Below are positions 24,025-53,163 of a stretch of DNA of 64,000 bases, piece by piece. The position numbers and the translations under genes were made by a program. This DNA comes from a virus. Taxonomy: Duplodnaviria > Heunggongvirae > Uroviricota > Caudoviricetes. The DNA is taken from IMG/VR virus record IMGVR_UViG_2617270980_000003. One strand, written 5' to 3'. The number at the start of each line of letters is the position of its first letter. The stretch's first letter is position 1. Under the pieces are notes generated by a model that did not search any database, had not been told where the DNA came from, and saw only the letters and a program-made list of their open reading frames with translations.

Positions 24025-25158
24025 CTATTCAGTTTCTGCGATCCAGTCAGATATTTTTGCTTCAAAGTTAAGCTGTGTTGTGAATCCATTACTATCAACA
24101 TCATGCTGTACCTTGCTGATTATCCAGTCCTGGGCGTCAATATCAGCTTTAAAACCGGTTACCGTTGCGTGCATTTCCGGGTACAACTCCGCGCGCCCGC
24201 GCGCCAGGGTGATCGAAAACTCCGCCGCGCCGCGCTGTAACTGCTGCCACTTTGCCGCCGCTGCGCGCCTGGCGGCTTCTTCGTTCTGGAAGGTTTTACG
24301 CATAATAAAAACGTTACCTTCAGCGCCTTCAATATAGTCACCTTCCCTGCTGCTGCTCTTATCCGCTTTTTTAGTTGTGGCACGACGACGGACACTGACC
24401 TTTTTCTTTTTCCCGTAATTCAGATCAAGCCAGTACGCGCGGACGCCGGTATAAGCGTCACGATCAGCAACGCGGAAGCGGTGCCGGTCGCCACTGCTGC
24501 GCGTGATGGCAATCGACGGAATAGCCTTCCCTGATGCTGTGAAACCACCACCCGGCACGATAAATAACAGACTGCCATTTTTTACCGTGGCGATGGCCCC
24601 TAACATTTCCGCCATTCTGGTCAGAAATGACATATCGCTTTCCTGAGTCTGATCGGCGTGGTCAATTTCCACATCCATCAACAGATCGCTGATTTGCGGC
24701 GTCAGGTCATACCGTTTTGCGATAGCGGACACAACCCGCTCCACAGTCACATCATGCCAGGAGACTTCACGCTTCACGTTAAACTCTTCTCTGAAATCTG
24801 CACTCCTGGCGGTCACCGTGATACGGTCTGGCGGCCCGTCATGCGCGACTTCATCAACCGTGTACACGCCCTTATAAACCAGCGCTTCACCCATCCACCC
24901 CAGCCAGAAAGACAACTCAGCACCGCGCAGCGGAAGGGCAACGCCTCCATCAGTATCATCCAGCTCTAATGTCAGCTGATCGGCGTCAAATCCCCTGTTG
25001 TCCGTCAGGCTGATGGATATCACGCGATCTGATAATTCTGTTAACACCTTTCCGCCCTGCCGGACGCTGAATGCCGGTATTTTTAACGCCTCCGTCAGGA
25101 TGTCATCGACACCGCCAGCCGCGCCCGAAATCATACTGCTGATCACTGAAACACTCAT
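24025..25158 (-). CDS. D: P2 gpD-like tail protein (late control D family)
   Basis: About 378 aa, gpD-like; ATG at 25158 preceded by GGGAGGG; ORF-track start at 25272 is TTG. Confidence 0.85.
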   Translation of the reverse strand: MSVSVISSMISGAAGGVDDILTEALKIPAFSVRQGGKVLTELSDRVISISLTDNRGFDADQLTLELDDTDGGVALPLRGAELSFWLGWMGEALVYKGVYTVDEVAHDGPPDRITVTARSADFREEFNVKREVSWHDVTVERVVSAIAKRYDLTPQISDLLMDVEIDHADQTQESDMSFLTRMAEMLGAIATVKNGSLLFIVPGGGFTASGKAIPSIAITRSSGDRHRFRVADRDAYTGVRAYWLDLNYGKKKKVSVRRRATTKKADKSSSREGDYIEGAEGNVFIMRKTFQNEEAARRAAAAKWQQLQRGAAEFSITLARGRAELYPEMHATVTGFKADIDAQDWIISKVQHDVDSNGFTTQLNFEAKISDWIAETE

Positions 25159-25236: not shown

Positions 25237-25311
25237 ACCAGAAAGGCGTGAAGCTGTTACGTCAATCAGCAATCATGGTGGCGAACTCAACAAAACGTAA
25301 TGGTGACAAAC

Positions 25312-26502
25312 ATGTCTGAGACACGTTTTCACGGTGCTCGCACCAAAGAAGAAACCGACATCACGAAGGTAATTAACGACATTGACTCCAGCGTCATTGG
25401 CGTAATTGTCATCGCTGATGACGCGGACGAAGACGCATTTCCACTCAACACCCCAACGCTTATCACGCGGCCTCAGTCGATGCTGGGCAAGGCGGGGAAA
25501 ACAGGGACGCTGTACAAAACGCTGAAAGCCATTTCAGACCAGGCAAGCGCGAAAGTCATTGTTGTTCGTGTCGCCGCAGCCAAGCCGCTGGAAGGCGACG
25601 CAGAAGCGGAAACGCAAGTGCAACTGATTATCGGTGGCTCTGATGCTGAAGGTAACTACACCGGCATGTATGCGCTTCTGACTGCCGAACAGAAGACACA
25701 GTATCGACCGCGCATCCTGGCGGTTCCTGAATACGACACCGAAGAAGTGACGGCACAGCTTTGTGTGATCGCCAAACAGCTTCGCGCCTATGTTTATGCA
25801 AGCTGTAACGGCTGCAAGACGCTGGCGGAAGCCCTCGCGTATCGTAAAACCTTCGCATCACGCGAACTCACGCTGATCTGGCCTGACTACATCGCATATA
25901 ACCAGGTGTCCGGGGAAAATGAAGTATTCCCGGCCCCGGCCTATGCGGTAGGGCTGCGCGCGTTTATTGATAACCAGTACGGCTGGCACCGCTCGCTATC
26001 TAACATTGCCGTCAGCAATGCGCTTGGCATTTCGAAGGATGTTTTCTGGGCGCTTCAGGCTGAAGACAGTGACGCACAGACGCTGAACAACGCCGAAATC
26101 ACCACCATCATCAAGCGTAATGGCTTCCGTTTCTGGGGTAACCGCACCACAGACACCAATGAATTTGTGTTTGAGGTGTACACCCGCACGGCGCAAATCC
26201 TGGCGGACACCATCGCAGAGGCGCAATTTGAAACCATTGACGGGCCACTCACCCCGACCAACGTGAAAGACGTGGTGAGCGCGATTAACAAGAAACTCAG
26301 TGCACTGGTCACAGCTGGCAAGTTGCTTGGCGCGGAAGCCTGGTTTGACATCGTGGACAACGGAACCGCAAACCTGATTCAGGGCAAAGTGGCGATCCGC
26401 TACAAGTACACGCCGGTGCCACCGATGGAAGATTTGACGCTGATCCAGACGTTCACCGATGAATATTTTGAAGGCGCGTTTTCGTCTCTGGGGAGTAACT
26501 AA
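25312..26502 (+). CDS. FI: tail sheath protein (P2 FI-like)
   Basis: About 396 aa; strong collinear match to P2 FI as recalled (FPLN.P.LIT, GFRFWGNRT, YTRTAQ, YKYTPVPP). Confidence 0.92.
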   Translation: MSETRFHGARTKEETDITKVINDIDSSVIGVIVIADDADEDAFPLNTPTLITRPQSMLGKAGKTGTLYKTLKAISDQASAKVIVVRVAAAKPLEGDAEAETQVQLIIGGSDAEGNYTGMYALLTAEQKTQYRPRILAVPEYDTEEVTAQLCVIAKQLRAYVYASCNGCKTLAEALAYRKTFASRELTLIWPDYIAYNQVSGENEVFPAPAYAVGLRAFIDNQYGWHRSLSNIAVSNALGISKDVFWALQAEDSDAQTLNNAEITTIIKRNGFRFWGNRTTDTNEFVFEVYTRTAQILADTIAEAQFETIDGPLTPTNVKDVVSAINKKLSALVTAGKLLGAEAWFDIVDNGTANLIQGKVAIRYKYTPVPPMEDLTLIQTFTDEYFEGAFSSLGSN

Positions 26503-27015
26503 ATGGCGATTCCACCAAAACTACGGCTGTTCACCTGCTTTGTGAACAGCGTGAACAATATCGGCAAAGTGACATCTGTCACGCTGCCAAAACTGACCCG
26601 CAAAACTGACGACTATCAGGGCGGCGGGATGATTGGCTCTGTTGCTGTCGATCTCGGACTGGATAGCGGCGCGCTTGATGCCACGATGGTTGTAGGCGGC
26701 CTGGTTCAGGCTCTGCTACTGGAATACGGCGGCGATCTGGACGGAACGCTTATCCGATTCACCGGGGAATATTACACATCCGGCGAGAGTCAGATCGTTG
26801 ACGTGGAAATGCGCGGCAAATTCACCGAAATCGACGGCGGCGAAAGCAAGCAGGGCGAAGATACGTCCGTAACCTACGCCATTAAAAACACGTACTACAA
26901 GCTGTCAATTGACGATAAGCCCATCTGGGAAATTGACCTGCTGAACTTCGTGTACAAACGCAACGACGAAAATATTTACCCTTCCCGCGTAATGTCTGCG
27001 CTGGGCATGGGATAA
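26503..27015 (+). CDS. FII: tail tube protein (P2 FII-like)
   Basis: 170 aa immediately after sheath gene. Confidence 0.9.
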   Translation: MAIPPKLRLFTCFVNSVNNIGKVTSVTLPKLTRKTDDYQGGGMIGSVAVDLGLDSGALDATMVVGGLVQALLLEYGGDLDGTLIRFTGEYYTSGESQIVDVEMRGKFTEIDGGESKQGEDTSVTYAIKNTYYKLSIDDKPIWEIDLLNFVYKRNDENIYPSRVMSALGMG

Positions 27016-27068
27016 CTAACAACCACTACAGGCGCGGCATCGGGTGATGCCGCCCGGAGATTAAAACG

Positions 27069-27380
27069 ATGACCGAAGAAAACACCGTAACACTGACACG
27101 CCCGATTAAACGCGACGGCAACGAAATCAAAACCATCACGATCACTGACGAAGTGAAACAGGCTGGTACCCTGCGCGGCCTTCGCCTGGTGAACGTGATG
27201 AATATGGACGTGGACAGCATCAGCACCCTGCTAACCCGCTGCACTTCCCCGCGCCTGAAGCTCAAAGAAATCAGCGAAATGGCAACATCTGACTTTGTTG
27301 AACTTTGCGAGGCGCTCACGCCTTTTTTAGCGCCGAAGGAGCCTGGCACGAAGAACGAGACGGAGACGGAGAGCGAGTAA
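27069..27380 (+). CDS. E: tail assembly chaperone E
   Basis: 103 aa between tube and tape measure; contains slippery heptamer. Confidence 0.85.
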   Translation: MTEENTVTLTRPIKRDGNEIKTITITDEVKQAGTLRGLRLVNVMNMDVDSISTLLTRCTSPRLKLKEISEMATSDFVELCEALTPFLAPKEPGTKNETETESE

Positions 27381-27541
27381 ACGCGCCCCACTTTGACCTG
27401 ATCGATGATCTGGTTGCTGATATAGCAGTTATTTTCAACTGGCCGCCCTCAGAGGTTTTCACTATGTCCCTGAGTGAGGTGATAGCCTGGCGTGAACGGG
27501 CGGCTATCCGAAGCGGAAACAGTGAAGATGAAAGACCTTAA
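27069..27541 (+). CDS. tail assembly chaperone E+E' (product of -1 programmed frameshift at T_TTT_TTA, 27323-27329)
   Basis: Heptamer TTTTTTA in E frame; -1 frame continues open to 27541 (FFSAEGAWHEE...), as in P2 E/E'. Confidence 0.75.
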
Positions 27542-30500
27542 TATCCGTGTCGCCTTCAGTGCGATTGATAAGTTAACCCGCCCGGTAAATGCCGCCCGCA
27601 ACTCAGTGGGCGGCTTATCTGAATCCCTCAAAAAAACACAATCGTCTATCAAAGATCTGGAAACGCAATCCCAGGCATTCAACCGCCTGAATGAGCGCGT
27701 TAAAAAGACATCCCAGCAACTCACCACAACACAGCGAGCCTTTGACGGCCTGAATAAAGCACAGAAAAACGGCACGGTACTAACCGACGCACAGCGCGAG
27801 CGCATGACGGCACTGGCAGCGAAACTTGATCGCCTGAATGCCAGCCGGTCACAGGAGACAGCAAAACTCCAGCAAGCGTCCCAGGCGCTGCGCGCGCACG
27901 GCGTTTCACTGGCGGGCGGCGATCGCACAATTCAAAGCGCTATCAGACGCACTGAGCAATACAACCAGACGCTTGAGAGAGAACGGCGACAACTTGCCGC
28001 AGTCACCAACGCGCGCGCCCGTTATGACCGTCTGAGCGCCACAGCGGGCAAATTGCGCACCGGCGGCGCGGTGGCGATTGGCGCAAGCGCGGGAGCGGGC
28101 TACGCTGCCGGACGCTTCCTGGCCCCTGCCGTGGGTTTTGATGAGGAAATGTCGCGCGTAGGCGCACTGACCCGCCTGGATAAAGGCGATGAACAGTTTG
28201 CCGCCCTGCGCGCCCAGGCCAAAAAACTTGGCGCTGAAACCGCATTTACCACGCGAGACGCCGCCAGCGGGCAAGCCTTCCTGGCAATGGCTGGCTTTAC
28301 ACCACAGTCAATTCAGGCTGCGCTGCCTGGCGTTCTGAATATGGCGCTAGCCGGTGGCATGGATCTGGGTGAGTCCGCTGATATCGGTTCAAACATCCTG
28401 ACGCAATTCAAGCTGTCATCAGATCAGATGGACAGGGTTGGCGATACGCTAACAGCCGCATTTACCCGTACCAATACCGACCTGCGCGCCCTGGGCGACA
28501 CAATGAAATACGCGGGGCCAGTGGCGGCTAATCTGGGTATTAGCCTGGAAGAGGCATCCGCTATGGCGGGGATGCTTGCCAATAACGGTCTGCGCGGCAG
28601 TGACGCGGGTACAGCATTACGTTCCAGTCTATCCCGCCTTGCTTCACCACCAAAAGCCGCGGCTGATGCTCTGAAAGAGCTAGGCGTGTCGGTTGCCGAC
28701 GCCAACGGGAAAATGCGCCCGATGGAAACGGTACTGTTAGACCTTTTCAAAGCCACACAGAAATACGGGCAGGTTGATCAGGTATCTTTCTTCAAAAATA
28801 TCGCCGGTGAAGAGGCCTTTGTGGGCCTCCAGACGCTGGTACAGGCGGCAGGCTCGGGAGAACTACAAAAGCTCACAAAAGAACTTCAGGGCGCTGCCGG
28901 TGAATCCGCTACCGTCGCAAAAAAAATGGCGGACAACCTGGGCGGGGATCTAAAAGAACTCGATAGCGCCTGGGAAGCATTCCGTATCCAGATTGAAGAA
29001 CTGGCGGACGGCGCACTGCGAAAACTCACCCAGGCACTGACCGGCACGATCGGCGTGATGACTGAATGGGCGAATAAGAATCCGCAGCTATCAAAAACCC
29101 TTCTGGCTGTTGGCGGCAGTGTGCTGGCCCTCACCGCCGGGATTGGCGCAACGTCCCTGGCTATTGGCTTACTTCTGGGGCCACTGGCAAAACTTCAACT
29201 CGGCTTTGCCCTGCTAACCAGCGGGAGCGGGCTGGGTGGCGCGGTGACACTGTTCAGCCGCCTGGCTGGCGTTATTTCCGGGCCGCTTGGCGGCATCCGT
29301 GGCTGGGGTGTCGTCTTCAGTAGAATGACCGGCAACGCCGGGAAACTGGCTGGCGCGCTTGCCCCATTGAGAGGACTGCTTGCCGCCGCGTTTATCTCAC
29401 CAGGTGCCGCCCTGGGCGGAATTGTAAAAGGGCTTGGTAGTCTCCTGCTTCGCCTGACCGGCATACCTGCAATCATGGGGATCGCTAGCTCGGCCCTCTC
29501 GATGCTCGGCGGCGCGCTGTCATTGCTGTTAAGCCCGATCGGGCTGATTGGCGCGGCCTTCATTGCCACAGGGTTGCTTATCTGGCGATTCTGGGAGCCG
29601 ATCAAAGCCTTCTTTGCGGGCTTCTTTGCCGGTGTAATGCAGGCGCTTACGCCGTTCCGTGATGCCTTCGCCGGACTGGCCCCCGTCTTTGATGTGATCT
29701 CAAATGCCGTTTCTCAGTTGTGGCAGTGGTTCAGCAACCTGCTTTCACCAATGACGACCAGCAAAGAGACATTGGATAAATGCGCAAGCGCTGGGGAGAC
29801 GTTCGGCAAAGTGTTTGGCCTGGCAATTCAGGGGCTAATGTTACCTCTGACTGGATTGGCCAAAATGGTTGGCTGGATACTTGAAAAGCTGGGGCTGATT
29901 CCGTCCGGGATTGAAGCGGCGAAAGCAAAAGCGGAGAAAGTGCAGAAGGAACTCACACCGGCAGGATTGGCTATGCTGCAGGACAAGGTTGGCACGCTCA
30001 CTGTCGATATGAAAGCAGTAACCGCGCCACCTATCGCCCCACCATCACCAGTGATTGCTGTTGATACGGGAACTCAACGGCGGTTACAGAAAATTGCGGA
30101 CAATACCGGCGGGATGCTGGATGCAACCAAAAAGCGGATCGGCCCTGGCGATATCGTGTTTAAGAATCTGCCCCGCGCATTAGCCGTCCACGGCGCATGG
30201 CAGGAAGCACAATCACCCCCAGGCGCAAACCTGGCCCAACTTAGCGCGCGCCCGGTTATCGCGGCGGCATCAGCACCGATTAAACCGGCAGTTGAAGTAC
30301 AGGCTATTAGCGGGCAATCCAGTAAACAAGCCAGCAAACCGGCGCAAAACACCGCTCCTGATGAAATACATATTCACATTCATATGCACGGCGATCTCAG
30401 CAACGACGCCCGCGACATTGCACGGATGGTGACTGATGCAGTTGGGGCAGAACTTAACAAGCGTTCCCGCTCTGGTAGCAGTTTCAGAGACAAAGATTAG
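27528..30500 (+). CDS. T: tail tape measure protein (P2 T-like)
   Basis: About 990 aa, Ala/Gly-rich with hydrophobic central segments, between E' and U; ORF-track start at 27492 is GTG, ATG at 27528 chosen. Confidence 0.85.
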   Translation: MKDLNIRVAFSAIDKLTRPVNAARNSVGGLSESLKKTQSSIKDLETQSQAFNRLNERVKKTSQQLTTTQRAFDGLNKAQKNGTVLTDAQRERMTALAAKLDRLNASRSQETAKLQQASQALRAHGVSLAGGDRTIQSAIRRTEQYNQTLERERRQLAAVTNARARYDRLSATAGKLRTGGAVAIGASAGAGYAAGRFLAPAVGFDEEMSRVGALTRLDKGDEQFAALRAQAKKLGAETAFTTRDAASGQAFLAMAGFTPQSIQAALPGVLNMALAGGMDLGESADIGSNILTQFKLSSDQMDRVGDTLTAAFTRTNTDLRALGDTMKYAGPVAANLGISLEEASAMAGMLANNGLRGSDAGTALRSSLSRLASPPKAAADALKELGVSVADANGKMRPMETVLLDLFKATQKYGQVDQVSFFKNIAGEEAFVGLQTLVQAAGSGELQKLTKELQGAAGESATVAKKMADNLGGDLKELDSAWEAFRIQIEELADGALRKLTQALTGTIGVMTEWANKNPQLSKTLLAVGGSVLALTAGIGATSLAIGLLLGPLAKLQLGFALLTSGSGLGGAVTLFSRLAGVISGPLGGIRGWGVVFSRMTGNAGKLAGALAPLRGLLAAAFISPGAALGGIVKGLGSLLLRLTGIPAIMGIASSALSMLGGALSLLLSPIGLIGAAFIATGLLIWRFWEPIKAFFAGFFAGVMQALTPFRDAFAGLAPVFDVISNAVSQLWQWFSNLLSPMTTSKETLDKCASAGETFGKVFGLAIQGLMLPLTGLAKMVGWILEKLGLIPSGIEAAKAKAEKVQKELTPAGLAMLQDKVGTLTVDMKAVTAPPIAPPSPVIAVDTGTQRRLQKIADNTGGMLDATKKRIGPGDIVFKNLPRALAVHGAWQEAQSPPGANLAQLSARPVIAAASAPIKPAVEVQAISGQSSKQASKPAQNTAPDEIHIHIHMHGDLSNDARDIARMVTDAVGAELNKRSRSGSSFRDKD

Positions 30501-30512
30501 GAGAGCAAAACA

Positions 30513-31001
30513 ATGATGATGGTTTACGGAATGTTCGTCTTTGAGTTAAAAACCATTCCCCACCAACAATTACAGCAGTCAAAGACATGGCGGCATGTAA
30601 AGAACGAGCGCATAAACCGATCGGCAAAGTGGCAATACATTGGTGCAGGTGACGATCAGATTACCTTATCCGGTGTTTTGTACCCATCAGTGACCGGCGG
30701 TAAGGTGAGTCTAACTGTGCTCGATACACAGGCCTACACCGGACGCCCCTGGCCTCTTATCAGCGGCACCGGGCGGATCTATGGCATGTATTCGATAACG
30801 CAGCTTCAGACCACCGATACTGAATTTGACCAGTATGGGGAGCCGAAGAAAATAGAATTTACGATCACGTTTCAAAGGCAGGATGAAGACCTGCGCGAAA
30901 GCCTCCAGTCTTCATCAGTGAGTGATTTACTCGGCAACCTGCAAAACACAGCCAACTCAGCGCTGAATAATATCAGCGCCGCCGCATCCAGTCTGTTTTA
31001 A
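30513..31001 (+). CDS. U: tail protein U (P2 gpU-like)
   Basis: 162 aa immediately after tape measure. Confidence 0.85.
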   Translation: MMMVYGMFVFELKTIPHQQLQQSKTWRHVKNERINRSAKWQYIGAGDDQITLSGVLYPSVTGGKVSLTVLDTQAYTGRPWPLISGTGRIYGMYSITQLQTTDTEFDQYGEPKKIEFTITFQRQDEDLRESLQSSSVSDLLGNLQNTANSALNNISAAASSLF

Positions 31002-31167
31002 ACAAGTAAAAATATACCCCTCGGATTGGTTTTCACCGAGGGGAGCAACAAGAGACCTAGCTCTAATTTTGTTCAATCATGTGTAAATTGTGCAGACTAA
31101 ATGATTGTCCTTAGAATTTTTGTAAGTAAAATAACCACAATTTTTCCTAATTGCGCGACTAGACTCT

Positions 31168-32138
31168 ATATGAAAAACCTTTCCTCAATTGATTACGCAA
31201 AACTTTTCTTTGCGTTTTGTATCATTTTTATACACACAGACATTTTAGGCGGCAACAGTAATTATATAGGATATGTTACTTGCCAGGGACTGCTAAGGAT
31301 TGCAGTGCCATTCTTTTTCATTACTAGTGGATATTTTTATTTTTCTGTAATGCAAAAAAATAAAATTAAAAAATGGTTTTCTCACAATATAAAAACCTAT
31401 GCTCTATGGACGCTTCTTTACTTACCAATAATACTAGGATTAGTTGGTTTTATTAGGGCGGGTAAGCCTTTAGCGACAGACCTTACATATTTATCTCTAA
31501 ATGCAGTATTTGGATTTTGGCACTTATGGTTTTTCCCTGCCCTGATAGTATCGGCATTATTAACATTACTTTTAGCTAAGCTAAAAGATCGCACATTAAT
31601 AATCATATGCTGCATACTTTATACGTGCGGCACGTTACTTCAATATCGCGCAAATTATTCCATTGACATAAATCGTGACATATGGTCTCTCGCTACAGTT
31701 TTCTTTTCCAGAAACGGTCTTTTCATGGGTTTTCCATTGTTTATGCTTGGATACCTTATAAATAAAAATAACATAAGAAATAACAATACATATTTACTCA
31801 TTGGTTCCATTATTTTGGTCATCATTGAGGCATCCGTAAATTATTCATATGGCACATATACCTTTGATATGCTTTTTTCACTTCCATTCGCTGGTGTTTT
31901 TGTTTTTTTAAAAGTTCTAGATATCACCCTGAAAACAAAAAACACCTTCACAATTCGCGAGCACTCAAAAAACATATATCTTATACAAATCTATGCCATT
32001 CAGTTTGCAAAACAATTTGCATCTGATTGGTTAGTCATAACAACAATCGCATGCACTATTTGCATTAGCTATTCAATAGCTAATATCATTAAAGATAATT
32101 TAATTGCAAACTTTAGACTAAAAAGCCTATCAAATTAA
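31168..32138 (+). CDS. membrane acyltransferase (acyltransferase-3 family, Oac-like), AT-rich cargo at the P2 Z/fun position
   Basis: About 323 aa, multiple hydrophobic helices, low GC versus neighbours; located between tail fibre assembly gene and the sheath block. Confidence 0.75.
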
Positions 32139-32566
32139 TCCTCAGGGATATCAGGCCAGATAATGTCGGGGGCTTTTGATGTGTCAATACGCATTAATAG
32201 CACCCGATATTTCTTCCACTTCGCAAGCTGAATAACTTCATCATCGGTTGAAATACCAGCTTCAATCGCATCCTGCCGCCACGCAATTTCTGTACCTGCA
32301 TTTTCAGCCAAGTCTTTTTTTTGCTGTATAGCTAACGCAATTAACTGATCGGCTGTAGGCTCTGATACATCAACCCATACAGGCTGACCGGAAGCGTCGC
32401 CTCCTCTACCTTTTCCTTCTGGCGGCCTTCCTGTGTATTTCTGATAAATATCAGATTCAACTTCAACAATGTCATCAGGCCATGTATTCGTTTTTTCATA
32501 GTCTGATTTCATTGACTCAAAAAAGAATGAGTTATTCTTAGCACTGAAATATATATTACTAAACAT
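32135..32566 (-). CDS. G: tail fibre assembly protein (P2 G-like)
   Basis: About 143 aa directly downstream of tail fibre gene; C-terminal conserved WPD motif region. Confidence 0.75.
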   Translation of the reverse strand: MFSNIYFSAKNNSFFFESMKSDYEKTNTWPDDIVEVESDIYQKYTGRPPEGKGRGGDASGQPVWVDVSEPTADQLIALAIQQKKDLAENAGTEIAWRQDAIEAGISTDDEVIQLAKWKKYRVLLMRIDTSKAPDIIWPDIPED

Positions 32567-32568
32567 AA

Positions 32569-33855
32569 TTAACACCCCACACCAAAGCAAAAGAATGGTT
32601 TTGACGCAGCGACGCCTGTTCTTTCTAATAAAGAAACCTGCATATCTCGATCGCTTAATCTTTTAACTCCAGCAATCGCCGACGCTGCTGCATCACCAGC
32701 CACATTGCATGGCAAAATACCAAAACAGCGAACAGGCCAACCAATAGGAAAAGGGGCTGAAGCCCAGCCGCCACCATCAGTATTCCCCCAACACCACTGT
32801 AAAATTATTCCATTTGGAAAACGCACCCAACCGGCATCAGCCATTACCTGAGTAAAGTCTGTATTTTTCACATACCCCTGAATGCCCCAATCATTCTGAA
32901 AAATCAATTTTTTCACATCAGCATTCATTGTGAATGCATTAACTCGACGATCGGAGATCTCCCCTGATGGAGATAAAGCAAAATCAATATAGTTCGCGCC
33001 GTTTCCCATTATGCCGCAAATAATCGACGACATAATTGCTCCACCAAATGAAAAATCCAAACCACATGCACTTCCATTTTCACTGCTTTTATTTTTGATA
33101 TGAATACCTGAAAAACCACTCTCTTTTTCCACGATCATTTCGTGTCCGACTGCTGAGATAATACCTTCAACAATCACATCACCAGTAACCCTCCCACCAG
33201 AAGCAGGTAACGCATCGGCTGCTAATTGAACTGTTTTATCCAAACCAAGGTTTTTGATAGCCTCTCCAACCAACCCGGCCTTAATCAATTCTTTAAGAGC
33301 ATTTTCAATCAACAGGTACTGGCTATGCGGATTAGCGGTGTCAACGTGCTTTTTTATCGCGTTGTCTGTATAGGTTTTCACCTCAATTACAGCACTATCA
33401 ACATACTGCCGGGTTGCCAGCACAACGGACGGATCAACTTTCAGGGTAACGGCATCAGTGCTCGATACCGTGAGCATCATCCTTATAACCTGCGTACGGC
33501 CTGATCCTTCCTCTGTTGTGGCCTTGTACGTCTCCGGGCAGTTAGCCACAGCAATCAAGATACCATCAGCATCAAAGAGTCCTATTTCACGAATCCACCA
33601 CCCGCCAACGGATTCAGGAATAATCTGTTCCGCAATAATCTGGCTGTCGTTTTTATCGTCCACTGACAGCGAGTTAAGCTGGGCGCGGCGCACCTCGTTA
33701 ACCAGCGCTGTCTGTGCCTGGCTTGGTGTTGGTGATTTGCCGCCGCCGTCGCCAACTGCGAGCGAGGTGATTTCTAACTTCTCACCCAGCGCAGCCATAT
33801 TTGATAATTTTGCCGCCCCCTGAGCAGTCAGCAGGGCAAAGAATTTAGCCGCCAT
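32569..33855 (-). CDS. H: tail fibre protein (P2 H-like)
   Basis: 428 aa; N-terminus MAAKFFALLTAQGAAKLSNMAALG typical of P2-family tail fibres. Confidence 0.85.
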   Translation of the reverse strand: MAAKFFALLTAQGAAKLSNMAALGEKLEITSLAVGDGGGKSPTPSQAQTALVNEVRRAQLNSLSVDDKNDSQIIAEQIIPESVGGWWIREIGLFDADGILIAVANCPETYKATTEEGSGRTQVIRMMLTVSSTDAVTLKVDPSVVLATRQYVDSAVIEVKTYTDNAIKKHVDTANPHSQYLLIENALKELIKAGLVGEAIKNLGLDKTVQLAADALPASGGRVTGDVIVEGIISAVGHEMIVEKESGFSGIHIKNKSSENGSACGLDFSFGGAIMSSIICGIMGNGANYIDFALSPSGEISDRRVNAFTMNADVKKLIFQNDWGIQGYVKNTDFTQVMADAGWVRFPNGIILQWCWGNTDGGGWASAPFPIGWPVRCFGILPCNVAGDAAASAIAGVKRLSDRDMQVSLLERTGVAASKPFFCFGVGC

Positions 33856-34459
33856 TTGTTACCTCTAACGTATCAATAATATGAATTGCGCCCCCGGGAA
33901 AATACCCGCCACTGACTTCTACGGCTTCAGGCATATAGGGGTAAATAGTCATCACGTCACCGCCATAACACCCGGCGTGGGCGTATACCTCTCCCTTCGC
34001 CTGCATACTGATTGCAAGGCCGGTCAGGTGGCGTGAGCATGGTTTTGCATCAGCGATCAGGCGCTCAAGCTCGAGATAGGTTTCTTCTGTAATCCCTGAG
34101 TCAGAAACACCAATTTCAAGTTGAAATGTTCCCCGCTCGCCTCCGTTCTGCCACCATTCAACGACCTTTATCAGGAAGCCGAACGGCTCAACGACACGGC
34201 GCAGCGCCGCAATAGTTCCCTTTTGCCGGTGTACCAGCCAGGCGGATTTAATCACCTGTCGCTTTGTCTGTTCTGACCAGCCTTTATCCCAGCGATCAAC
34301 CGATAACGCCCAGGCCAGATAAGGCAGTAAAGCAACCGGGCATTCATCAGGGTTCCACAGCGTTTTCAGGTCTACGGGCAAATCACTCACGCGCCAGGTT
34401 GCGGCCTCGGCACTGCGCATAAAATCACTGGCTGAAGGTGGCAACAGACTGTTATTCAT
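33845..34459 (-). CDS. I: baseplate assembly protein I
   Basis: 204 aa at the P2 I position. Confidence 0.85.
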   Translation of the reverse strand: MNNSLLPPSASDFMRSAEAATWRVSDLPVDLKTLWNPDECPVALLPYLAWALSVDRWDKGWSEQTKRQVIKSAWLVHRQKGTIAALRRVVEPFGFLIKVVEWWQNGGERGTFQLEIGVSDSGITEETYLELERLIADAKPCSRHLTGLAISMQAKGEVYAHAGCYGGDVMTIYPYMPEAVEVSGGYFPGGAIHIIDTLEVTNGG

Positions 34460-35345
34460 CGGTTCCGCCTCTCGTGATGGTGACCGAAGCGCACCGCGCC
34501 GCCTGTGTATCGCTGATAATCAGCCGTTCAGGTAAATCCAGTTCCACACGCTGCACGCCCTGCACGTGTAACGCCGCCAAAATTGCAGACCTGGCAACAT
34601 CAAGCCCGATCCGCCACTGGCTTTTGAGCCACTTCTGCAACGACGCCTCGGCAGCGTTCACAATGGGTTCTGACTCTGGGCCTGGGTAGAGATACAGCGT
34701 GGCATTGATGTCATAACTGATAATCTCAGCGCTCTGGACTGTCAGCCTGTCACCCACAGGGCGGACACTTTCATCTGATAATTTTGCGTTGACCGTTGCG
34801 ATCAGCTCGTCTGAAGCCGTTCCGTCACCTTCAGCAGAGAGCACCGAAACAACAACTTCAGCCGGCGCCGGACTTGATGCCTTAACATCAGCAACTTTCC
34901 CTGATGCGCTTTTAGCGAAGTATTCGTAAGCGCCGGTAGGCCCGGCAACACTCAATCCTTCGAATGCAGATTGCGCACGTAAGCGCAGCGCGGCGTCACT
35001 TTCCATTACCGCATCTGTTGTATCTGTCTCCTCAACAATCGTCAGTCGCTCTGTATTGTTATTTGCCGCCAGGTTATCCAGATCTCCGCCGGTGGAATGG
35101 CTTAACATGCAAGCTGCAGCACCGTCATTTATGACCTGTCGCAACATCAATTCGCGATAAGCAATCACCTGAGCGAGCACCGTCAAAGGCTCCGACTCAA
35201 GCTCCAATGCTGCTGCTATGGCCTGTTGTTGTCCCTCCGGATAAGCGGCAATAATCATCTCTTTCACATCACTCAGGATGATTTCGAAATCCAGCGTCGC
35301 GATGATTTCCGGTGGTGGAAGCTCTGATAAATCAACTGTCGCCAT
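34452..35345 (-). CDS. J: baseplate assembly protein J
   Basis: 297 aa at the P2 J position. Confidence 0.85.
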   Translation of the reverse strand: MATVDLSELPPPEIIATLDFEIILSDVKEMIIAAYPEGQQQAIAAALELESEPLTVLAQVIAYRELMLRQVINDGAAACMLSHSTGGDLDNLAANNNTERLTIVEETDTTDAVMESDAALRLRAQSAFEGLSVAGPTGAYEYFAKSASGKVADVKASSPAPAEVVVSVLSAEGDGTASDELIATVNAKLSDESVRPVGDRLTVQSAEIISYDINATLYLYPGPESEPIVNAAEASLQKWLKSQWRIGLDVARSAILAALHVQGVQRVELDLPERLIISDTQAARCASVTITRGGTDE

Positions 35346-35700
35346 TGCCTGACTCCTTCACCTTTACTGCACCGCTTACCGGCTGCATTGTTGTGGTAAC
35401 CAATCCGCCTAACTCAACCGTCACCGCCCCGGCGTCTGAATACGTAATATCAACCTGGTTAAGTGCTATCCGCGGTTCCCATTGCGTCAGCGCAATCACC
35501 GTGGCGCTCATTAGCTGAAGGCGTGTTGTTTCGTTTTTCGGGGCGTCCAGCAAATCAGGTAACAAGCTGCCGTACGACCGGCGCATTACGCGTGACCCCA
35601 ACGGCGTCAGCAGGACATCTTTCACGGACTGCCAAAGGTGATCGCTATCTGAAACCGTCCCTGTGCCGCCCTGGTTCATTCCCGTATATTTCGCCGTCAT
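35332..35700 (-). CDS. W: baseplate wedge protein W (gp25-like)
   Basis: 122 aa, P2 gpW-like. Confidence 0.85.
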   Translation of the reverse strand: MTAKYTGMNQGGTGTVSDSDHLWQSVKDVLLTPLGSRVMRRSYGSLLPDLLDAPKNETTRLQLMSATVIALTQWEPRIALNQVDITYSDAGAVTVELGGLVTTTMQPVSGAVKVKESGNGDS

Positions 35701-36278
35701 GCCGTCCCCTTAGTCCTGCTATTGCCACTCTCAACACCACCATGATCATGATCGTCAGCCTGGACGCCGTTTGACTTCAGTGCGCCGCCGCTGTGAGTTA
35801 CATCGCCGGTCATCTTTCCGCCCTCAGTGAAATCAAAGGTTTTCGCTTTCAGATGTTTTGTGCACTCCACCTCTGGCGCATCGAGCGTGATTTTTGTTGC
35901 TGCCTGGATGGTGGCGGTTTTCATTCCGCCGGCACTCAGTGCGCCCGCCTTCGCGTCATAGCTAAATTCAGCCCCATCAGGCGCGGTGATCATCATCTGC
36001 ATCAGGCTACTGGCGGGGGCGTCGTTTTCGTTGCTGTAGAGGCTGCCCAGCACAACGGCTGTTTCAGGATTGCCGCCCAGACATCCCAGCAAAACCTGTT
36101 CGCCCAGCGACGGCGCACACCAGAATTTGAAAGCACCGGCGCGCGTTGTCGTCCAGCGAAGCCATGTTGTCTGCAAATCATCGCTCTGCACCCGTACACT
36201 TTTACCGTCTTTCGATATGTCAAAAACCACGCCCACACGGAGCACGTTAGACAGGAGGCGCAACAGTTCGGCACTCAT
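35697..36278 (-). CDS. V: baseplate spike/hub protein V
   Basis: 193 aa, P2 gpV-like. Confidence 0.85.
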   Translation of the reverse strand: MSAELLRLLSNVLRVGVVFDISKDGKSVRVQSDDLQTTWLRWTTTRAGAFKFWCAPSLGEQVLLGCLGGNPETAVVLGSLYSNENDAPASSLMQMMITAPDGAEFSYDAKAGALSAGGMKTATIQAATKITLDAPEVECTKHLKAKTFDFTEGGKMTGDVTHSGGALKSNGVQADDHDHGGVESGNSRTKGTA

Positions 36279-42472: not shown

Positions 42473-44197
42473 ATGATCCAGGACGCATTTGTAAGACAGA
42501 GAGCAAAGCAGCTTTACTGGCAGGGCTACCCGCCAGCAGAGATCGCACGCCTGATGGGTATCAGTCAGAACACGGTTTATTCGTGGAAAAAGCGCGACGA
42601 ATGGGACGAAACGCCCGCGATTCAGCGCGTCACACAATCTATTGATGCCCGGTTATGCCAAATCGCGATGAAACCAACAAAGACCGGCGGCGATCTGAAG
42701 GAAATCGACGCGCTCACGCGCCAGGTGAAGAAGCTGGCAGAAGGCCAACCGGCGCAACCCTTCAAGAAAGCGCGCGCGGGCAAGAAGAAAAACCACTTCA
42801 CCGAAGCGCAGATCGCCGCGCTGCGGGAAAAAATTCAGGACTCTCTGGCCTGGCATCAGCAGGGATGGTTTGAACAGCGCCAGCAACGAAACCGCATGAT
42901 CCTGAAAAGTCGCCAGATTGGCGCAACCTGGTATTTTGCCCGCGAAGCGCTATTACAGGCGCTGCGGGATGACGTTAAGCACGGATACCAACGCAACCAG
43001 ATTTTTCTGTCAGCGTCACGCCGCCAGGCGCACCAGTTCCGGGGATTCATTCAGAAGATTGCCGAAGAGGTAGACGTAGAACTAAAGGGCGGTGACAAAA
43101 TTTTGCTGTCTAACGGGGCTGAATTGCATTTTCTCGGCACGTCTGCCGCTACTGCGCAGAGCTACACCGGCAACCTGTTTTTTGATGAATTTTTCTGGGT
43201 AGGCAACTTTGCCAACCTTCGCAAAGTGGCTGGCGCTATGGCAACCCTGAAAGGGCTTACGCGCACTTACTTTTCAACGCCATCGAGCGAAAGCCACGAA
43301 GCCTACCCCTTCTGGACGGGCAAGCGCTGGAATGAGAAGCGGGCCAAGTCCAGCAGGGTAGACTTCGACACAAGCTGGAAAACGCTAAACAGCGGCCTAT
43401 TGTGCCCGGACAAAACCTGGCGGCAGATTGTCACCCTAAAGGACGTGATCGACCACGGCTGGGAGTTCACCGACCTGGAAGAAATCCAGGACGAAAACAC
43501 CCCGGACGAATACACCAACCTGTACATGTGTGAGTTCGTCAGAGAAGGCGAGGCTGTTTTCTCACTCAATCAGCTACTGACGTGTGGCGCGGACGGCTAC
43601 GACGACTGGCAGGACTGGAAACCCTACGCACCCCGCCCGCTGGGTGATCGTGAAGTCTGGATAGGCTACGACGCCAACGGCGGCAGCGGCAACGGTGACA
43701 GCGGCGCTGTTTCCGTGGTTGCCCCTCCCCTTGTCAGTGGCGGCAAGTTCCGCACGATAGAGACGCGCCAGCTACGCGGGATGGAGTTTGAAGAACAGGC
43801 CAAAGTGATCGAAGACCTGACGATGAAATATAACGTTCGACACATCGCAATTGACGGCACCGGCATCGGTGAAGCGGTCTGGCAACTGGTCAAAAAGTTC
43901 TTCCCGGCTTCGGTCTGTTTCATAATGTCGCTGTCATCAAAGCGCACCCTGGTACTGAAAATGCAACAGGTGATCCGCGCGGGGCGCTGGGAGTATGACC
44001 GCAGTGAACAGGCGCTAGTGTCAGCATTCAACGCTGTCAGAAAGATCACCACCCCCGGCGGACAAGTCACTTATGACACCGACCGCGCGCGCGGAGTCAG
44101 TCACGGCGACTTAGCCTGGGCCAATATGCTGGCAGTCATCAACGAGCCGCTTGGACGCGAGAACGGCGGCGGCGGTAGTTTCGTTATGGAGTTTTAA
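42473..44197 (+). CDS. P: terminase large (ATPase) subunit P
   Basis: About 574 aa; ATG at 42473 with GAGAGGA upstream; ORF-track TTG start at 42389 lies inside the promoter element. Confidence 0.9.
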   Translation: MIQDAFVRQRAKQLYWQGYPPAEIARLMGISQNTVYSWKKRDEWDETPAIQRVTQSIDARLCQIAMKPTKTGGDLKEIDALTRQVKKLAEGQPAQPFKKARAGKKKNHFTEAQIAALREKIQDSLAWHQQGWFEQRQQRNRMILKSRQIGATWYFAREALLQALRDDVKHGYQRNQIFLSASRRQAHQFRGFIQKIAEEVDVELKGGDKILLSNGAELHFLGTSAATAQSYTGNLFFDEFFWVGNFANLRKVAGAMATLKGLTRTYFSTPSSESHEAYPFWTGKRWNEKRAKSSRVDFDTSWKTLNSGLLCPDKTWRQIVTLKDVIDHGWEFTDLEEIQDENTPDEYTNLYMCEFVREGEAVFSLNQLLTCGADGYDDWQDWKPYAPRPLGDREVWIGYDANGGSGNGDSGAVSVVAPPLVSGGKFRTIETRQLRGMEFEEQAKVIEDLTMKYNVRHIAIDGTGIGEAVWQLVKKFFPASVCFIMSLSSKRTLVLKMQQVIRAGRWEYDRSEQALVSAFNAVRKITTPGGQVTYDTDRARGVSHGDLAWANMLAVINEPLGRENGGGGSFVMEF

Positions 44198-45258
44198 TGA
44201 ACACAACAACACATGAAAGCGGTATGACCATGCTTACTGACGGCGCGCAACAGGCTGATATTGGCGAAGCACTAAAGCGCGATCCCGCTCTGAGCGCCTT
44301 CACCTTTGATGGGCCATACCAGGTCGCGGACGCTTACGACCTACTCGACAATATGTATTGCGCCGACAACGGCAGATATTACGAAACGCCGGTGGACTGG
44401 TACGGGCTTGCGCGTTCATTCGGCAAAGCATCCTGGCACCAGTCAGCGCTGTACTTCAAGCGCAACGCGCTGGCGGGATGCTTTATTCCACACCCGCTAC
44501 TGTCTCGCCAGACGTTCTCCGCCCTGGCGCTTGACTGGTTTGTGTTTGGCAACTTCTATCTTGAAGAACGAAAGAACCGGCTAGGCGGGCGGCTACCGCT
44601 TCGCCATTCCCCTGCGAAGTACACCCGGCGCGGCACCGACCTGGACACGTACTGGTTTATCAGGCAGTGGAAAGACGAATGCGCCTTTGAAACCGGCACA
44701 GTTTGCCACGTGCTGAACCCCGATATTCACCAGGAAATCTACGGGATGCCGGAATATATGGGCACCCTGCTGTCAGCCAGCCTGTCACACTCGGCGGACA
44801 TGTTTCGCAAAATGTACTATGAGAACGGATCTCATGCTGGCTGCATTCTTTACATCGGCACATCACAGGTAGATGACGCTGGTGTAAAACAGATACAGCA
44901 AACACTGGCAGGAGCCAGGAACAAAGGCGCATTTAAGAACGTAGTGATCCACGCACCAGGCGGCGGCAAAGATGGGGTACAACTGATGCCCTTCAGCCAG
45001 ATATCTGCAAAGGATGAGTTTTTAAATATTAAATCAGCTACGCGTGATGACATCCTTGCCGCTCACCGCGTACCACCGCAACTGATGGGGGCCATGCCGG
45101 ACGGCAACGGCTCATTCGGTGATATGGAGAAAGCCGCGCGCGTGTTTGCCATCAACGAACTGATGCCAGCAATGGAAGCACTGAAGCACGTCAACGACTG
45201 GCTTGGCGAAGAAGTGATCCGCTTTAAACCTTACGCCCTGCTTGAATCCACCAAATAA
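44197..45258 (+). CDS. Q: portal protein Q
   Basis: 353 aa immediately after P, start overlapping P stop. Confidence 0.9.
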   Translation: MNTTTHESGMTMLTDGAQQADIGEALKRDPALSAFTFDGPYQVADAYDLLDNMYCADNGRYYETPVDWYGLARSFGKASWHQSALYFKRNALAGCFIPHPLLSRQTFSALALDWFVFGNFYLEERKNRLGGRLPLRHSPAKYTRRGTDLDTYWFIRQWKDECAFETGTVCHVLNPDIHQEIYGMPEYMGTLLSASLSHSADMFRKMYYENGSHAGCILYIGTSQVDDAGVKQIQQTLAGARNKGAFKNVVIHAPGGGKDGVQLMPFSQISAKDEFLNIKSATRDDILAAHRVPPQLMGAMPDGNGSFGDMEKAARVFAINELMPAMEALKHVNDWLGEEVIRFKPYALLESTK

Positions 45259-45663: not shown

Positions 45664-47013
45664 ATGCGATTGACCGCTCCTGTTAAAGCGTTCTCAGATG
45701 GTTTTAGTACAGCAGATGACATATTTGGACGTAAAAAACTTCATGACATCATCATGCGGGTAGCAACAAATGCCCCAGATAAAAGTCTTGTACTTGCGCT
45801 CAATGATGAATGGGGTAACGGAAAAACCTCATTTGTAAAAATGATGTCATCAGAAATAAATAAAAACCATGCTGACAACTTTGACGTTATTTACTTTGAC
45901 GCTTTTGAAAATGACTATCAATCAGACCCATTTGTAGCCTTAACATCAAAAATTTATTCACTCATAAAAAAAGAAGATGGAAAGCTTAAAAACCTCGGGA
46001 AAGAGTTATTATCCATTGGTAAAAAACTAGGCGCGTCATTCGCACTTAATGGTGCAAAATTTGCCGTAAGCACTTTCACAAGTGGATTAGTCTCAGGTAA
46101 CGCACTGGAGAAAGCAAGTGATGCCATCAGTGACTCTCTCACATCACCTATTGAAGAGTACATTGAAGAAAAAATAAAAACGAGCGAGAGTGAGTTAGCA
46201 ACAATTGAGCAATTTAGAGCATTGCTGACCAAGATTCACACTGAGTGTGGGAAAAAAATAATATTTATAATTGATGAGCTAGACAGGTCGCGACCTGATT
46301 TTTCCCTTGACTTGCTAGAGAAAATAAAACATATATTTTCAGTGGAAGGTTTTGTTTTCTTACTAGTAGTTAACCGTGAGCAGTTTGAAAAAAGTATAGA
46401 GTGTAGATATGGGAGCATAAATACAAGATTATATTTAAATAAATTTATTCATTATTGGTTTACTCTTCCTAAAAAAAGTATGCTCTCAGTAGGCTGCCGA
46501 GCAGGCTATGAACGTTCAACGTTAACACAATATCTCCTGTCGTTAGATCAAGGGAATGACATACTGATTCGGAATGGTTCTCTCGTAAAAACCCTCGCGT
46601 ATCTTCTAGAAATGAATAACTGTTCACTGCGAGAGGCTGAGCGTTGCTATTCAACATTCGCAATAATGAACGACCCCAGCGAAGTAAATTCCTACCGACA
46701 TGAAATATTTCATGTTGCCATCGCACTAGTTGCTTTCTTGAAAATATTCAACCAATCCTTACTCATGGAAATATTAAACAAAAAACTGACAGAAGATGAG
46801 ATATTTAAACGATTATCAATTCCTGTAAACCTTGTCGATGTTTCTGAGATTTATTATATTGCAATATTGTTAAAATACCACTTAGCCACCGATGAAGAAC
46901 TACGTTCCTCTGATATGCTCACTGAGTACGCATTCATGGCTGTAATACCTGGACAACGAGTCAAATGGTTTGAAATGATGTATGAGAAGATCGAAGGCTT
47001 TGATATTAACTGA
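45664..47013 (+). CDS. KAP-family P-loop NTPase (soluble; no TM insert evident), cargo in P2 old/tin hotspot
   Basis: Walker A LNDEWGNGKTSF and Walker B IIFIIDELDR; AT-rich; own SD (GAGGAAAAG); lies between cos/Q and gene A on the opposite strand to A. Confidence 0.8.
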   Translation: MRLTAPVKAFSDGFSTADDIFGRKKLHDIIMRVATNAPDKSLVLALNDEWGNGKTSFVKMMSSEINKNHADNFDVIYFDAFENDYQSDPFVALTSKIYSLIKKEDGKLKNLGKELLSIGKKLGASFALNGAKFAVSTFTSGLVSGNALEKASDAISDSLTSPIEEYIEEKIKTSESELATIEQFRALLTKIHTECGKKIIFIIDELDRSRPDFSLDLLEKIKHIFSVEGFVFLLVVNREQFEKSIECRYGSINTRLYLNKFIHYWFTLPKKSMLSVGCRAGYERSTLTQYLLSLDQGNDILIRNGSLVKTLAYLLEMNNCSLREAERCYSTFAIMNDPSEVNSYRHEIFHVAIALVAFLKIFNQSLLMEILNKKLTEDEIFKRLSIPVNLVDVSEIYYIAILLKYHLATDEELRSSDMLTEYAFMAVIPGQRVKWFEMMYEKIEGFDIN

Positions 47014-47292
47014 TAAGCCATATTATCTTTTATCTCTATTTTGAAGCAATAAAACTAGAAGTAAACTCTAAAAAGCCGCCAATCCCGGCGGTCTTTGAAG
47101 GGCATTACAATTTCGTGGCGCTCAGTTATACATGGATTCTTAGCAAGGACCAAGCCGCGACACACTACATTGTAGCTCCCCGCTATGTGATTTGAAGTTG
47201 CTGGCAATCAAAAAATGCTCCCTTTAGTACCACTAATTTTGTAGAGTATGGTTAACTTTGAAAAGTTGTAATACGTCAACTAAGGAACAGCG

Positions 47293-48444
47293 ATGTCATC
47301 AGAAAAAACAATAGAACGTTTCGTTGCAGCAGATGTTAGCGGTGCAATCTGGTTACGATTAAAACGATTAATGAGTGCGCAGCTCTGTAAGAAAATAATA
47401 GAAAATAATCATCCGTCATTGCAAGAGGATGTATTGATTAAAAAATCCATTGGAATGTCCTCCGCAATACGAAGTGCAATCGGATATTGGGAGACTGAAA
47501 ATGGCGGACTCAATTCAAAAATTTTATCCAGATATTATGCATTATTACAGATAAGCTTAGCTGAACAAATATCATCAGGGGATCCTAACGACGATTTAAA
47601 AAATGTTCAAAAGCATACGGTTTCAGGTCATGGGCTATTCACACAATCTGTTGAAAATGAAACATTCCCAGACAATATAAAAATAGGCTGTCTTAAAAGT
47701 GGACATTTTTATTCATATGCAAAGCATATAGGAATTGATATCAAACAGTATGCAACAGAAAGACGTCCAAAAAAAGATGAAGATTTAGACCCATCACGCA
47801 CCTATTCTTTAACTGATTTATTAAAACGAATTCCAGAATTAAGACCGCTTTTACAAGAAACTTTCGGTGAAGATCCACTTTCATTCCAAATTGGACAAGC
47901 AAGTAGAAACATGCTCTTAAGATCAAGGAATCAGTCACTCGGTGGCCTATCGCGTCCTAAACCAGAGTTCTCAGGTTTTACATATGCCGCAATTTATCCC
48001 AAAGGTAGCGATGTAACAGCAGAAGAGCTTAATTCTTACAACATTGGAATAAAAAACATTGAAATTGAGTCAGAAGAAAACCTCACAAAATATGACCAAC
48101 CATATTTTGTAGGAGAAGTCCATCACCCTGAAGATGAGCTATGGTGGGATTATGTCACGACACACAAATCTGGTTATTGTGGAACGAGTGTAATTGTCCC
48201 ATTTTGGGGAACTCAAGATCCCTTTGTATTACACTTAGTCGTATTATATACATTAAGCATTATAGTCAGGTATCTCCCTGACACTTGGTATGAGATTGAG
48301 CATGGCAAACTTGATTATATTAATTCCCTTTTGGAAAATTATTTAGCTATTTTTGATAGTGTACTGCCTAAACTTGCGGTTGAAAGATTAACGAAAGTTC
48401 ATTTGGTAGTAACAGCACCCGATAGCATGAATTCCCCTATCTAA
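47293..48444 (+). CDS. hypothetical protein, 383 aa, no recognised domain; hotspot cargo
   Basis: Long AT-rich ORF with SD (AAGGAACAG), preceded by its own AT-rich intergenic region and a hairpin after the KAP gene. Confidence 0.6.
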   Translation: MSSEKTIERFVAADVSGAIWLRLKRLMSAQLCKKIIENNHPSLQEDVLIKKSIGMSSAIRSAIGYWETENGGLNSKILSRYYALLQISLAEQISSGDPNDDLKNVQKHTVSGHGLFTQSVENETFPDNIKIGCLKSGHFYSYAKHIGIDIKQYATERRPKKDEDLDPSRTYSLTDLLKRIPELRPLLQETFGEDPLSFQIGQASRNMLLRSRNQSLGGLSRPKPEFSGFTYAAIYPKGSDVTAEELNSYNIGIKNIEIESEENLTKYDQPYFVGEVHHPEDELWWDYVTTHKSGYCGTSVIVPFWGTQDPFVLHLVVLYTLSIIVRYLPDTWYEIEHGKLDYINSLLENYLAIFDSVLPKLAVERLTKVHLVVTAPDSMNSPI

Positions 48445-53003: not shown

Positions 53004-53163
53004 TTTTTTGCTCCTTGATTTCTGCGGCCTGTTCTCTGTTGTCGATCCAGTTTTCCAGGCTGCGATAAATTTCATTGGTGGACAGTTTTTCTTTTTTCAG
53101 CAAGGTTAATTTGATACGTAACAATCCAAGCAGGTGCGCGCGTTCATTTGTTTGAATTGTCAT
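53001..53163 (-). CDS. small hypothetical protein (about 54 aa) translationally coupled to dam
   Basis: ATG at 53161-53163, stop overlapping the dam GTG start (GTGATTAA); not in ORF track because below its size cut-off. Confidence 0.3.

Follow-up and report, generated by a model that had tools for sequence, protein, structure and literature searches.

An AT-rich AT3-family acyltransferase gene beside the tail-fibre assembly gene of a P2-like prophage: a predicted lysogenic-conversion moron

Introduction

What does a rare, AT-rich gene do at the end of the tail-fibre operon of a P2-like prophage of E. coli, and why does it lie there? We asked this of a cargo gene in a 64,000-nucleotide stretch of DNA from a tailed virus (Caudoviricetes; IMG/VR record IMGVR_UViG_2617270980_000003), the whole of which is called the window below. 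A first-pass annotation, made from the letters of the window, had proposed an 'Oac-like' membrane acyltransferase carried as variable cargo at the P2 Z/fun hotspot. Surface-glycan acyltransferases carried by phages alter serotype and phage sensitivity and, in some cases, virulence, which makes each new one a candidate for lysogenic conversion. Our analysis leads us to consider it fairly probable that the gene, a member of the acyltransferase-3 (AT3) family, is a moron (cargo that phage growth does not require) encoding a predicted stand-alone inner-membrane O-acyltransferase of surface polysaccharide, which would be expressed in the lysogen and convert the cell surface.

Results

The interval 31002-32140 contains, according to the open reading frame (ORF) list, one long ORF on the plus strand (31101..32138). 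Its product matches Pfam PF01757 (Acyl_transf_3) at 68.5 bits against a cut-off of 31 (E 7e-19), and the match spans residues 28-324 of this ORF and model positions 2-322 of 326. An AlphaFold (AF2) model, with 75 homologues in the alignment, has a pLDDT of 90.9 and a pTM of 0.90 and consists of about 10 long helices; the hydropathy peaks agree with about 10 predicted membrane helices. The family profile and the membrane topology thus both bear out the earlier assignment to the acyltransferase-3 family of membrane proteins. There is also a weak match to PHROG 3333, 'O-acetyltransferase'. A Pfam scan and the ORF list revealed no SGNH domain in the product or adjacent to it, and the predicted architecture is 'AT3-only'. 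Together with the homologue starts and an NCBI (PGAP) annotation discussed below, these results make 31170..32138 (plus strand, 322 aa) the likely coding sequence of the cargo gene.

Reviews of the family describe two motifs, R/K-X10-H in helix 1 and RXXR at the cytoplasmic face of helix 3 (PMC9558356, PMC9833829). The helix 1 motif is present as K11 and H22, with a spacing of exactly 10 residues. H22 is unchanged in 75 of 75 aligned sequences, and position 11 is K or R across the subfamily. In a 13-sequence alignment that includes four distant relatives, H22, R43, V46, P47, H118-L-W and E220 are invariant.

The product appears to belong to a very small and isolated AT3 subfamily. Among 5.8 billion protein clusters, nine are 46-99% identical to it, after which identity drops to 36% or less; an exhaustive HMMER search of 1.84 billion representatives returned two at at least 49% identity and then nothing above 34%. 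The gene is present in 1 of 5,426 complete E. coli genomes. The identical protein is indexed in 97 blocks of an assembly collection, and all 24 contigs that were read from it carry the same prophage context. Neither near nor distant DNA searches among deposited phage genomes produced a match, and no relative turned up when species-representative genomes were scanned with the protein. The sole non-phage member (46% identity) lies on the Pantoea stewartii chromosome between hisI and gnd. P0129, one of the nearest outgroups, stands at the end of a cluster that also encodes Wzx, Wzy and glycosyltransferases, and the JGI label of the homologue P0008 is 'surface polysaccharide O-acyltransferase-like enzyme'. 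It is these two contexts and this label that suggest a link between the subfamily and surface polysaccharide.

Pairwise dN/dS among the homologues is 0.07-0.13 where dS can be estimated (dS is saturated in several pairs), and the gene is full length in every context, indicating that the subfamily is under purifying selection. As the first-pass annotation had noted, the gene is low in GC: 32.1%, compared with 50.4% for the prophage and 48.9% for the neighbouring tail gene U, and 30% at third codon positions (GC3) compared with 57% in U, so that the interval forms a trough of 30-37% inside DNA of 50-57%. The homologues, including the chromosomal one of Pantoea, have a GC content of 31-36% in every context, with flanks of 44-55%. 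We considered recent foreign acquisition as the source of the low GC and rejected it, because all homologues remain at 31-36% despite saturated dS. Retention of a low GC content through saturated synonymous divergence argues that the AT-richness is maintained and is not a sign of recent arrival; the gene is thus an old one under constraint, with a lasting AT-richness, and no newcomer. The parts of the report by Wiles et al. (PMC3573123) that deal with neaT, an AT3 gene of E. coli CFT073, describe a comparable persistent AT-richness for its homologues.

The true start of the gene is likely the ATG at 31170 and not position 31101. The aligned MKN is the start in all eight homologous clusters with 44-73% identity, and in the E. 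coli ES1 prophage, which is 98-99% identical, PGAP annotates a 969-nt AT3 coding sequence. The 345-aa reading from 31101 was dropped in favour of ATG 31170 on these grounds and also because a promoter-like element falls within its first 23 codons. The in-frame upstream extension of the mechanical ORF (31101..31169, plus strand) occurs in no homologous cluster other than the window's own 90% cluster, and is probably untranslated, comprising a promoter and the 5′ untranslated region.

The candidate promoter is a sigma-70-like element, TTGTCC-16-TAAAAT, at 31105..31132 on the plus strand, which emerged from a consensus scan and from conservation. The scan gave 6 matches versus 6.4 expected, and the element is not significant alone. 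However, the form TTGT(C/T)(C/T)-16-AGTAAAAT is invariant in leaders from six phage contexts, whereas the next approximately 30 nt diverge. Conservation of a -35/-10-like block while synonymous sites in the coding sequence are saturated points to a functional promoter. The block is part of a conserved 5′ leader (31065..31169, plus strand) that travels with the gene and aligns in all phage-borne homologues.

The left end of this leader, 31065, is also the left end of the DNA that the window shares with L005, a collinear P2-like prophage. The shared stretch (31065..32290; blastn, 70.6% identity) comprises the leader of about 105 nt, the AT3 gene and the last approximately 150 nt of the tail-fibre assembly gene G, and otherwise the two have no DNA in common. 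When direct and inverted repeats flanking the cassette were sought, none appeared, and there is thus no sign of a transposon-like unit.

Gene G (32135..32566, minus strand; Caudo_TAP, PF02413, E 6e-33, with the start that PGAP assigns in ES1) is convergent with the AT3 gene, and the two stop codons overlap in a shared TTAA at 32135-32138. This arrangement recurs: among six phage contexts, which represent five layouts of the tail genes, the AT3 gene is always convergent with a Caudo_TAP gene, and the stops usually overlap. A 69% identical homologue (P0004) occupies, in antisense orientation, the exact G/FI junction of a collinear P2-like prophage. Other homologues lie in an E. coli prophage remnant (J-I-H-G), in a phage with the order U-X-D-W-J-I-H-G, in a myovirus with different baseplate families, and in an invertible fibre region adjoining a WavE-family lipopolysaccharide (LPS)-core gene (L017). 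We also observed, on the E. coli contigs L017 (1593-4391) and L018, a resolvase/invertase next to which lie a fibre-tip fragment, a 67% identical AT3 homologue and the WavE-family gene, which puts a pair of surface-glycan genes within or at the edge of an invertible fibre region.

The tail fibre H (32569..33855, minus strand; PF12571 and PF21882) ends in a Gp53-like_C tip. This tip is 73-76% identical to fibres beside AT3 homologues in L009 and L015, whereas the N-termini, the parts that dock to the different baseplates, are 33-34% identical; the tip also shares 74.6% identity with part of the invertible region of the Mu-like phage Mu_3F6. The fibre tips and chaperones that accompany AT3 homologues fall into two unrelated types. 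Within each type the AT3 protein, the chaperone and the fibre tip diverge similarly, although the order differs for some pairs: between L016 and L017 the AT3 proteins are 86% and the chaperones 85% identical, and between the window and L015 the values are 71% for AT3, 57% for the chaperone, 76% for the fibre tip and 34% for the fibre N-termini. This pattern fits movement of tip, chaperone and AT3 gene as one module. In the conserved 3′ part of G there is, in addition, a sub-threshold Rfam match to IS009 (32175-32300, minus strand; 26.4 bits versus a gathering threshold of 117, E 7.5e-4), which is cut by the end of the stretch searched and probably reflects tfa coding similarity; Rfam gave sub-threshold matches only over 30900-32300.

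The left neighbour of the AT3 gene is the tail gene U (30513..31001, plus strand; PF06995 Phage_P2_GpU, E 2e-39), the last of a plus-strand block (25300..31001) of FI (25300-26502), FII, E, E', T (27492-30500) and U. The minus strand carries V-W-J-I-H-G (36278..32135) as well as D (about 24025-25140) and ogr. Relative to P2, the block from the sheath gene to U is therefore inverted, an arrangement already described for Enterobacter phage phiT5282H (Peduoviridae, Novemvirus) and present as well in E. coli 30EVA2, AMSCJX04 and JX21CE33. With the block inverted and D and ogr on the other strand, D must be expressed apart from FI-U. This map corrects the earlier description on two counts. The gene had been placed between G and the sheath block, which is wrong, as its neighbours are U on the same strand and the convergent G; and it had been called antisense to the flanking tail genes, which is true of G, while U, T, E, FII and FI are co-directional with it.

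The junction after G is variable. The AT3 gene occupies it in the window and in ES1, phiT5282H has nothing but a 154-bp gap separating U from the convergent fibre-assembly gene, and 30EVA2 has a frameshifted invertase and an alternative fibre and chaperone segment. The description as variable cargo thus stands: the gene lies directly downstream of G, at a junction where related phages lack it. The Z/fun label holds by position relative to G, as shown by the 69% homologue at G/FI in a collinear prophage and by neaT at 'moron position 2', the name that Wiles et al. give to the Z/fun site, and fails for the junction itself, which is G/U here and not G/FI because the FI-U block is inverted. Of the features of a moron, the gene has the unlike composition, its conserved -35/-10-like block is a candidate for an own promoter, and an own terminator is absent.

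A GC-rich hairpin, CCCCTCGG-N11-CCGAGGGG (31017..31043, minus strand; 8-bp stem, 11-nt loop), lies between the U stop (31001) and the AT3 gene. It folds with -18.8 kcal/mol (z -2.9), a stability that 1 of 200 shuffles attains. Its U-rich tract (UAUAUUUUUACUUGUUU) exists on the minus strand only; on the plus strand an A-tract precedes the stem and AGCAACAAG follows it. Within our set the hairpin is seen solely in the window's own phage lineage (L001, L003, L004), and phiT5282H has an analogous hairpin directly 3′ of U without any cargo, which argues that the hairpin belongs to the phage backbone, where it would act as a terminator-like element for minus-strand transcription. Most simply, it would terminate the convergent V-G operon, transcription of which would first cross the AT3 gene antisense. 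The first-pass annotation had thus located the hairpin correctly, between U and the gene; it is a backbone feature oriented for the opposite strand.

Several further elements of the window deserve mention. The P2-like prophage (23651 to about 55690) is nested in a Qin-like lambdoid prophage, the two flanks of which (ynfN/gnsB/terminase and rrrQ/rzpQ) are only 22 bp apart in E. coli strain 127. Two plus-strand genes at 45664-48444, between portal Q (44197-45258) and replication A (48785-51364), occupy the other P2 cargo hotspot (the old/tin position). They encode a KAP-family P-loop NTPase matching the PADLOC candidate PDC-S20 (E 1e-74) and a YaaC-like protein, and the ES1 prophage, here 96% identical, has different genes at this Q-A hotspot. 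The early region encodes a Dam-type (D12 class) N6-adenine DNA methyltransferase (52011-53075; PADLOC class orphan methyltransferase). Near the start of the window, a minus-strand gene (1954-4041) encodes a 695-aa product with Mu transposase C-terminal and Mu DNA-binding domains, which points to a transposable-phage-like element beside siphovirus-type tail genes (tape measure 9368-12463).

Discussion

The results above cover the family and fold of the AT3 product, its motifs, the purifying selection on it, the conserved element upstream of its gene, the variable presence of the gene and its repeated linkage to fibre assembly; from them we infer an acyl donor, an acceptor, a time of expression and a phenotype. 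The lysogen would transcribe the gene from its own sigma-70-type promoter, TTGTCC-16-TAAAAT. As in other AT3 enzymes, the product would draw an acyl group through its membrane pore, most likely acetyl supplied by cytoplasmic acetyl-CoA, with K11 and H22 in helix 1 and R43 taking part, and would transfer it at the periplasmic face to a sugar within an envelope polysaccharide. The likeliest acceptor would be the O-antigen or core of LPS, or another Wzx/Wzy-made glycan. The outcome would be lysogenic conversion, and the effect that we favour is reduced adsorption of phages that use the acylated glycan, those of the same fibre type included; the interaction with an animal host may be altered as well. 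We suggest this putative serotype conversion and superinfection exclusion on the basis of what is known of the family and of the surroundings of the gene.

A connection with the phage receptor is suggested by the convergence with Caudo_TAP genes, the similar levels of divergence within each fibre type, the WavE neighbour in L017 and the convergence of oac with the tailspike gene in Shigella phage Sf6. The AT3 gene would travel within, or attached to, an exchangeable module of fibre tip and chaperone, with the conserved 3′ end of the chaperone gene serving as one recombination arm. The fibres of Mu, P1 and P2 are known to bind LPS. We raise, as a tentative and rather doubtful extension, a portable 'bind and mask' module in which the AT3 enzyme acylates the very glycan that its companion fibre recognises, and which is exchanged whole among unrelated phages with contractile tails (P2-like, Novemvirus-like, Mu-like and others). 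If this were so, a phage gaining a new host range would simultaneously gain the matching superinfection exclusion. The linkage in this way yields a testable hypothesis, namely joint inheritance of receptor binding and receptor masking.

Several results weigh against a surface-polysaccharide acyltransferase tied to fibre exchange. No characterised enzyme is close: the top NCBIfam similarity is to the VanT membrane domain, far under the cut-off, the protein sequence matched no PDB chain, and Foldseek of the AF2 model against PDB and BFVD gave nothing significant. The PADLOC-DB 2.0 defence models gave no family at E <= 1. A tblastn search of 50,697 deposited phage genomes with the AT3 protein gave no homologue. 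The RXXR site reads G40-L-L-R43, so that the second Arg alone is present, and is invariant in the subfamily. The gene has no recognisable Shine-Dalgarno sequence, and a terminator 3′ of its stop was looked for and not found, the stop abutting G. As for the fibre linkage, AT3 proteins 67-69% identical to that of the window adjoin the second, unrelated fibre-tip type; since AT3 genes occur with both types, the type of acyltransferase is not tied one-to-one to the type of receptor-binding protein. The site 3′ of the fibre operon is moreover a general cargo hotspot, and the linkage may have arisen through permissiveness and hitch-hiking rather than through function.

The closest competitor is a host-fitness factor of the NeaT type, whose envelope change (aggregation, biofilm matrix, phagocytes) would help the lysogen in the animal host without any phage exclusion. 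The neaT gene belongs to the same Pfam family, has about 30% GC and occupies the same site in the same orientation, and the neaT sections of Wiles et al. (PMC3573123) link it to bacteraemia fitness and aggregation; the family profile of the window's protein is also nearer to NeaT than to Oac (hhalign 87.6% versus 12.6%). Yet NeaT is not an orthologue, with 19 residues aligned by BLASTP and 24% identity by hhalign, and host virulence leaves the recurrent linkage to fibre modules across many phage backbones unexplained. This explanation, which we regard as unlikely, is in any case compatible with glycan acylation and differs just in the selected phenotype. Less likely again is a non-LPS acceptor (peptidoglycan, enterobacterial common antigen, osmoregulated periplasmic glucans or colanic acid), as for AT3 enzymes of the WecH, OpgC and OatA types. 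All of these acceptors are within the range of the family (PMC9558356), and the VanT membrane domain, the top NCBIfam similarity, is not an O-antigen enzyme. However, peptidoglycan O-acetylation by AT3 proteins normally requires a fused or partner SGNH domain, neither of which accompanies the window's protein, and the closest chromosomal member lies at his-gnd, a nearest outgroup in a Wzx/Wzy cluster.

Two further explanations were considered. The gene lies on the strand of U, and the intervening hairpin has no plus-strand U-tract, which would allow read-through from the FI-U late operon and a role in the lytic cycle, with receptors on the dying cell modified to keep progeny from being lost to debris. 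However, in contexts such as the collinear P2-like and Mu-like ones the homologue runs antisense to every neighbouring late gene, so that read-through is not the general mode, and the conserved promoter block speaks for independent expression; we consider such a role improbable. In E. coli, AT-rich DNA is commonly silenced by H-NS, which together with the lack of a Shine-Dalgarno sequence and of an own terminator could be taken to mean that the gene is inert, decaying or silenced, and is carried along with a recombination-prone fibre module. Its full length everywhere, dN/dS of 0.07-0.13, invariant catalytic His and motif residues, and conserved promoter block all argue otherwise, and we disfavour this explanation as the least credible of those considered. 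A lysogen-expressed acyltransferase of surface polysaccharide is thus the explanation that we prefer.

How does the locus compare with known systems? An AT-rich AT3 gene after the fibre genes of a P2-like prophage has been known since 2013, when Wiles et al. (PMC3573123) published neaT of the CFT073 prophage phi-b0847 at 'moron position 2', and the conceptual gain is small because of this precedent. In its treatment of neaT that report states that NeaT promotes bacteraemia fitness and alters aggregation, and stresses homology to cell-wall-modifying acyltransferases, particularly those of peptidoglycan, which speaks against O-antigen acetylation; the same sections report no phage-exclusion assay. 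NeaT resembles the window's protein in being PF01757 AT3-only with about 330 aa, and its gene resembles the window's in having 29.8% GC in a P2-like prophage of about 50% GC, in lying directly downstream of a fibre-assembly gene, convergent and overlapping with it, and in being rare in E. coli and unameliorated. The other neighbour differs: neaT lies between the G homologue and FI, antisense, in CFT073, whereas the neighbour in the window is U. At the sequence level the similarity is confined to 258 hhalign columns at a probability of 87.6%, and the two represent different AT3 subfamilies. What is new, in the phage contexts examined, is a second, unrelated AT3 lineage at the same site, linked with fibre assembly and preceded by a conserved promoter block; the GC content of 31-36% maintained despite saturated synonymous divergence extends the observation made for neaT.

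Oac (gene 15) of Sf6 is the model for serotype conversion and self-exclusion (PMC9558356). Like the AT3 gene of the window, oac is phage-borne, encodes an AT3-only protein and is convergent with a receptor-binding (tailspike) gene; it has its own promoter, as the window's gene probably does. Sf6 is, however, a P22-like podovirus in which oac adjoins int/att, and RXXR is complete in Oac, whereas the window's protein has the second Arg alone. Oac is barely detectable with the family profile (62 hhalign columns, probability 12.6%), a further sign that no characterised enzyme is close. The label 'Oac-like' of the first-pass annotation is therefore apt at the level of the superfamily and misleading as a statement of close kinship, NeaT being the nearer of the two.

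The Z/fun locus of P2 is, like the site in the window, a variable cargo position right after the fibre operon, with independent transcription that is probable for the window too, but its cargo is unrelated to the AT3 gene and its junction is G/FI, compared with G/U in the Novemvirus-like order. Fibre swaps and invertases occur at this hotspot too (bioRxiv 10.1101/2024.10.15.618418), as in 30EVA2; Rousset et al. 2022 (PMC9122126) do not mention acyltransferases at P2 hotspots. Finally, Salmonella WbaK and Legionella Lag-1 are AT3-only O-acetyltransferases of chromosomal clusters, to which we liken the window's protein by architecture alone. Genes of this type are chromosomal while that of the window is phage-borne, with subfamily relatives at his-gnd in Pantoea or at the end of a Wzx/Wzy cluster.

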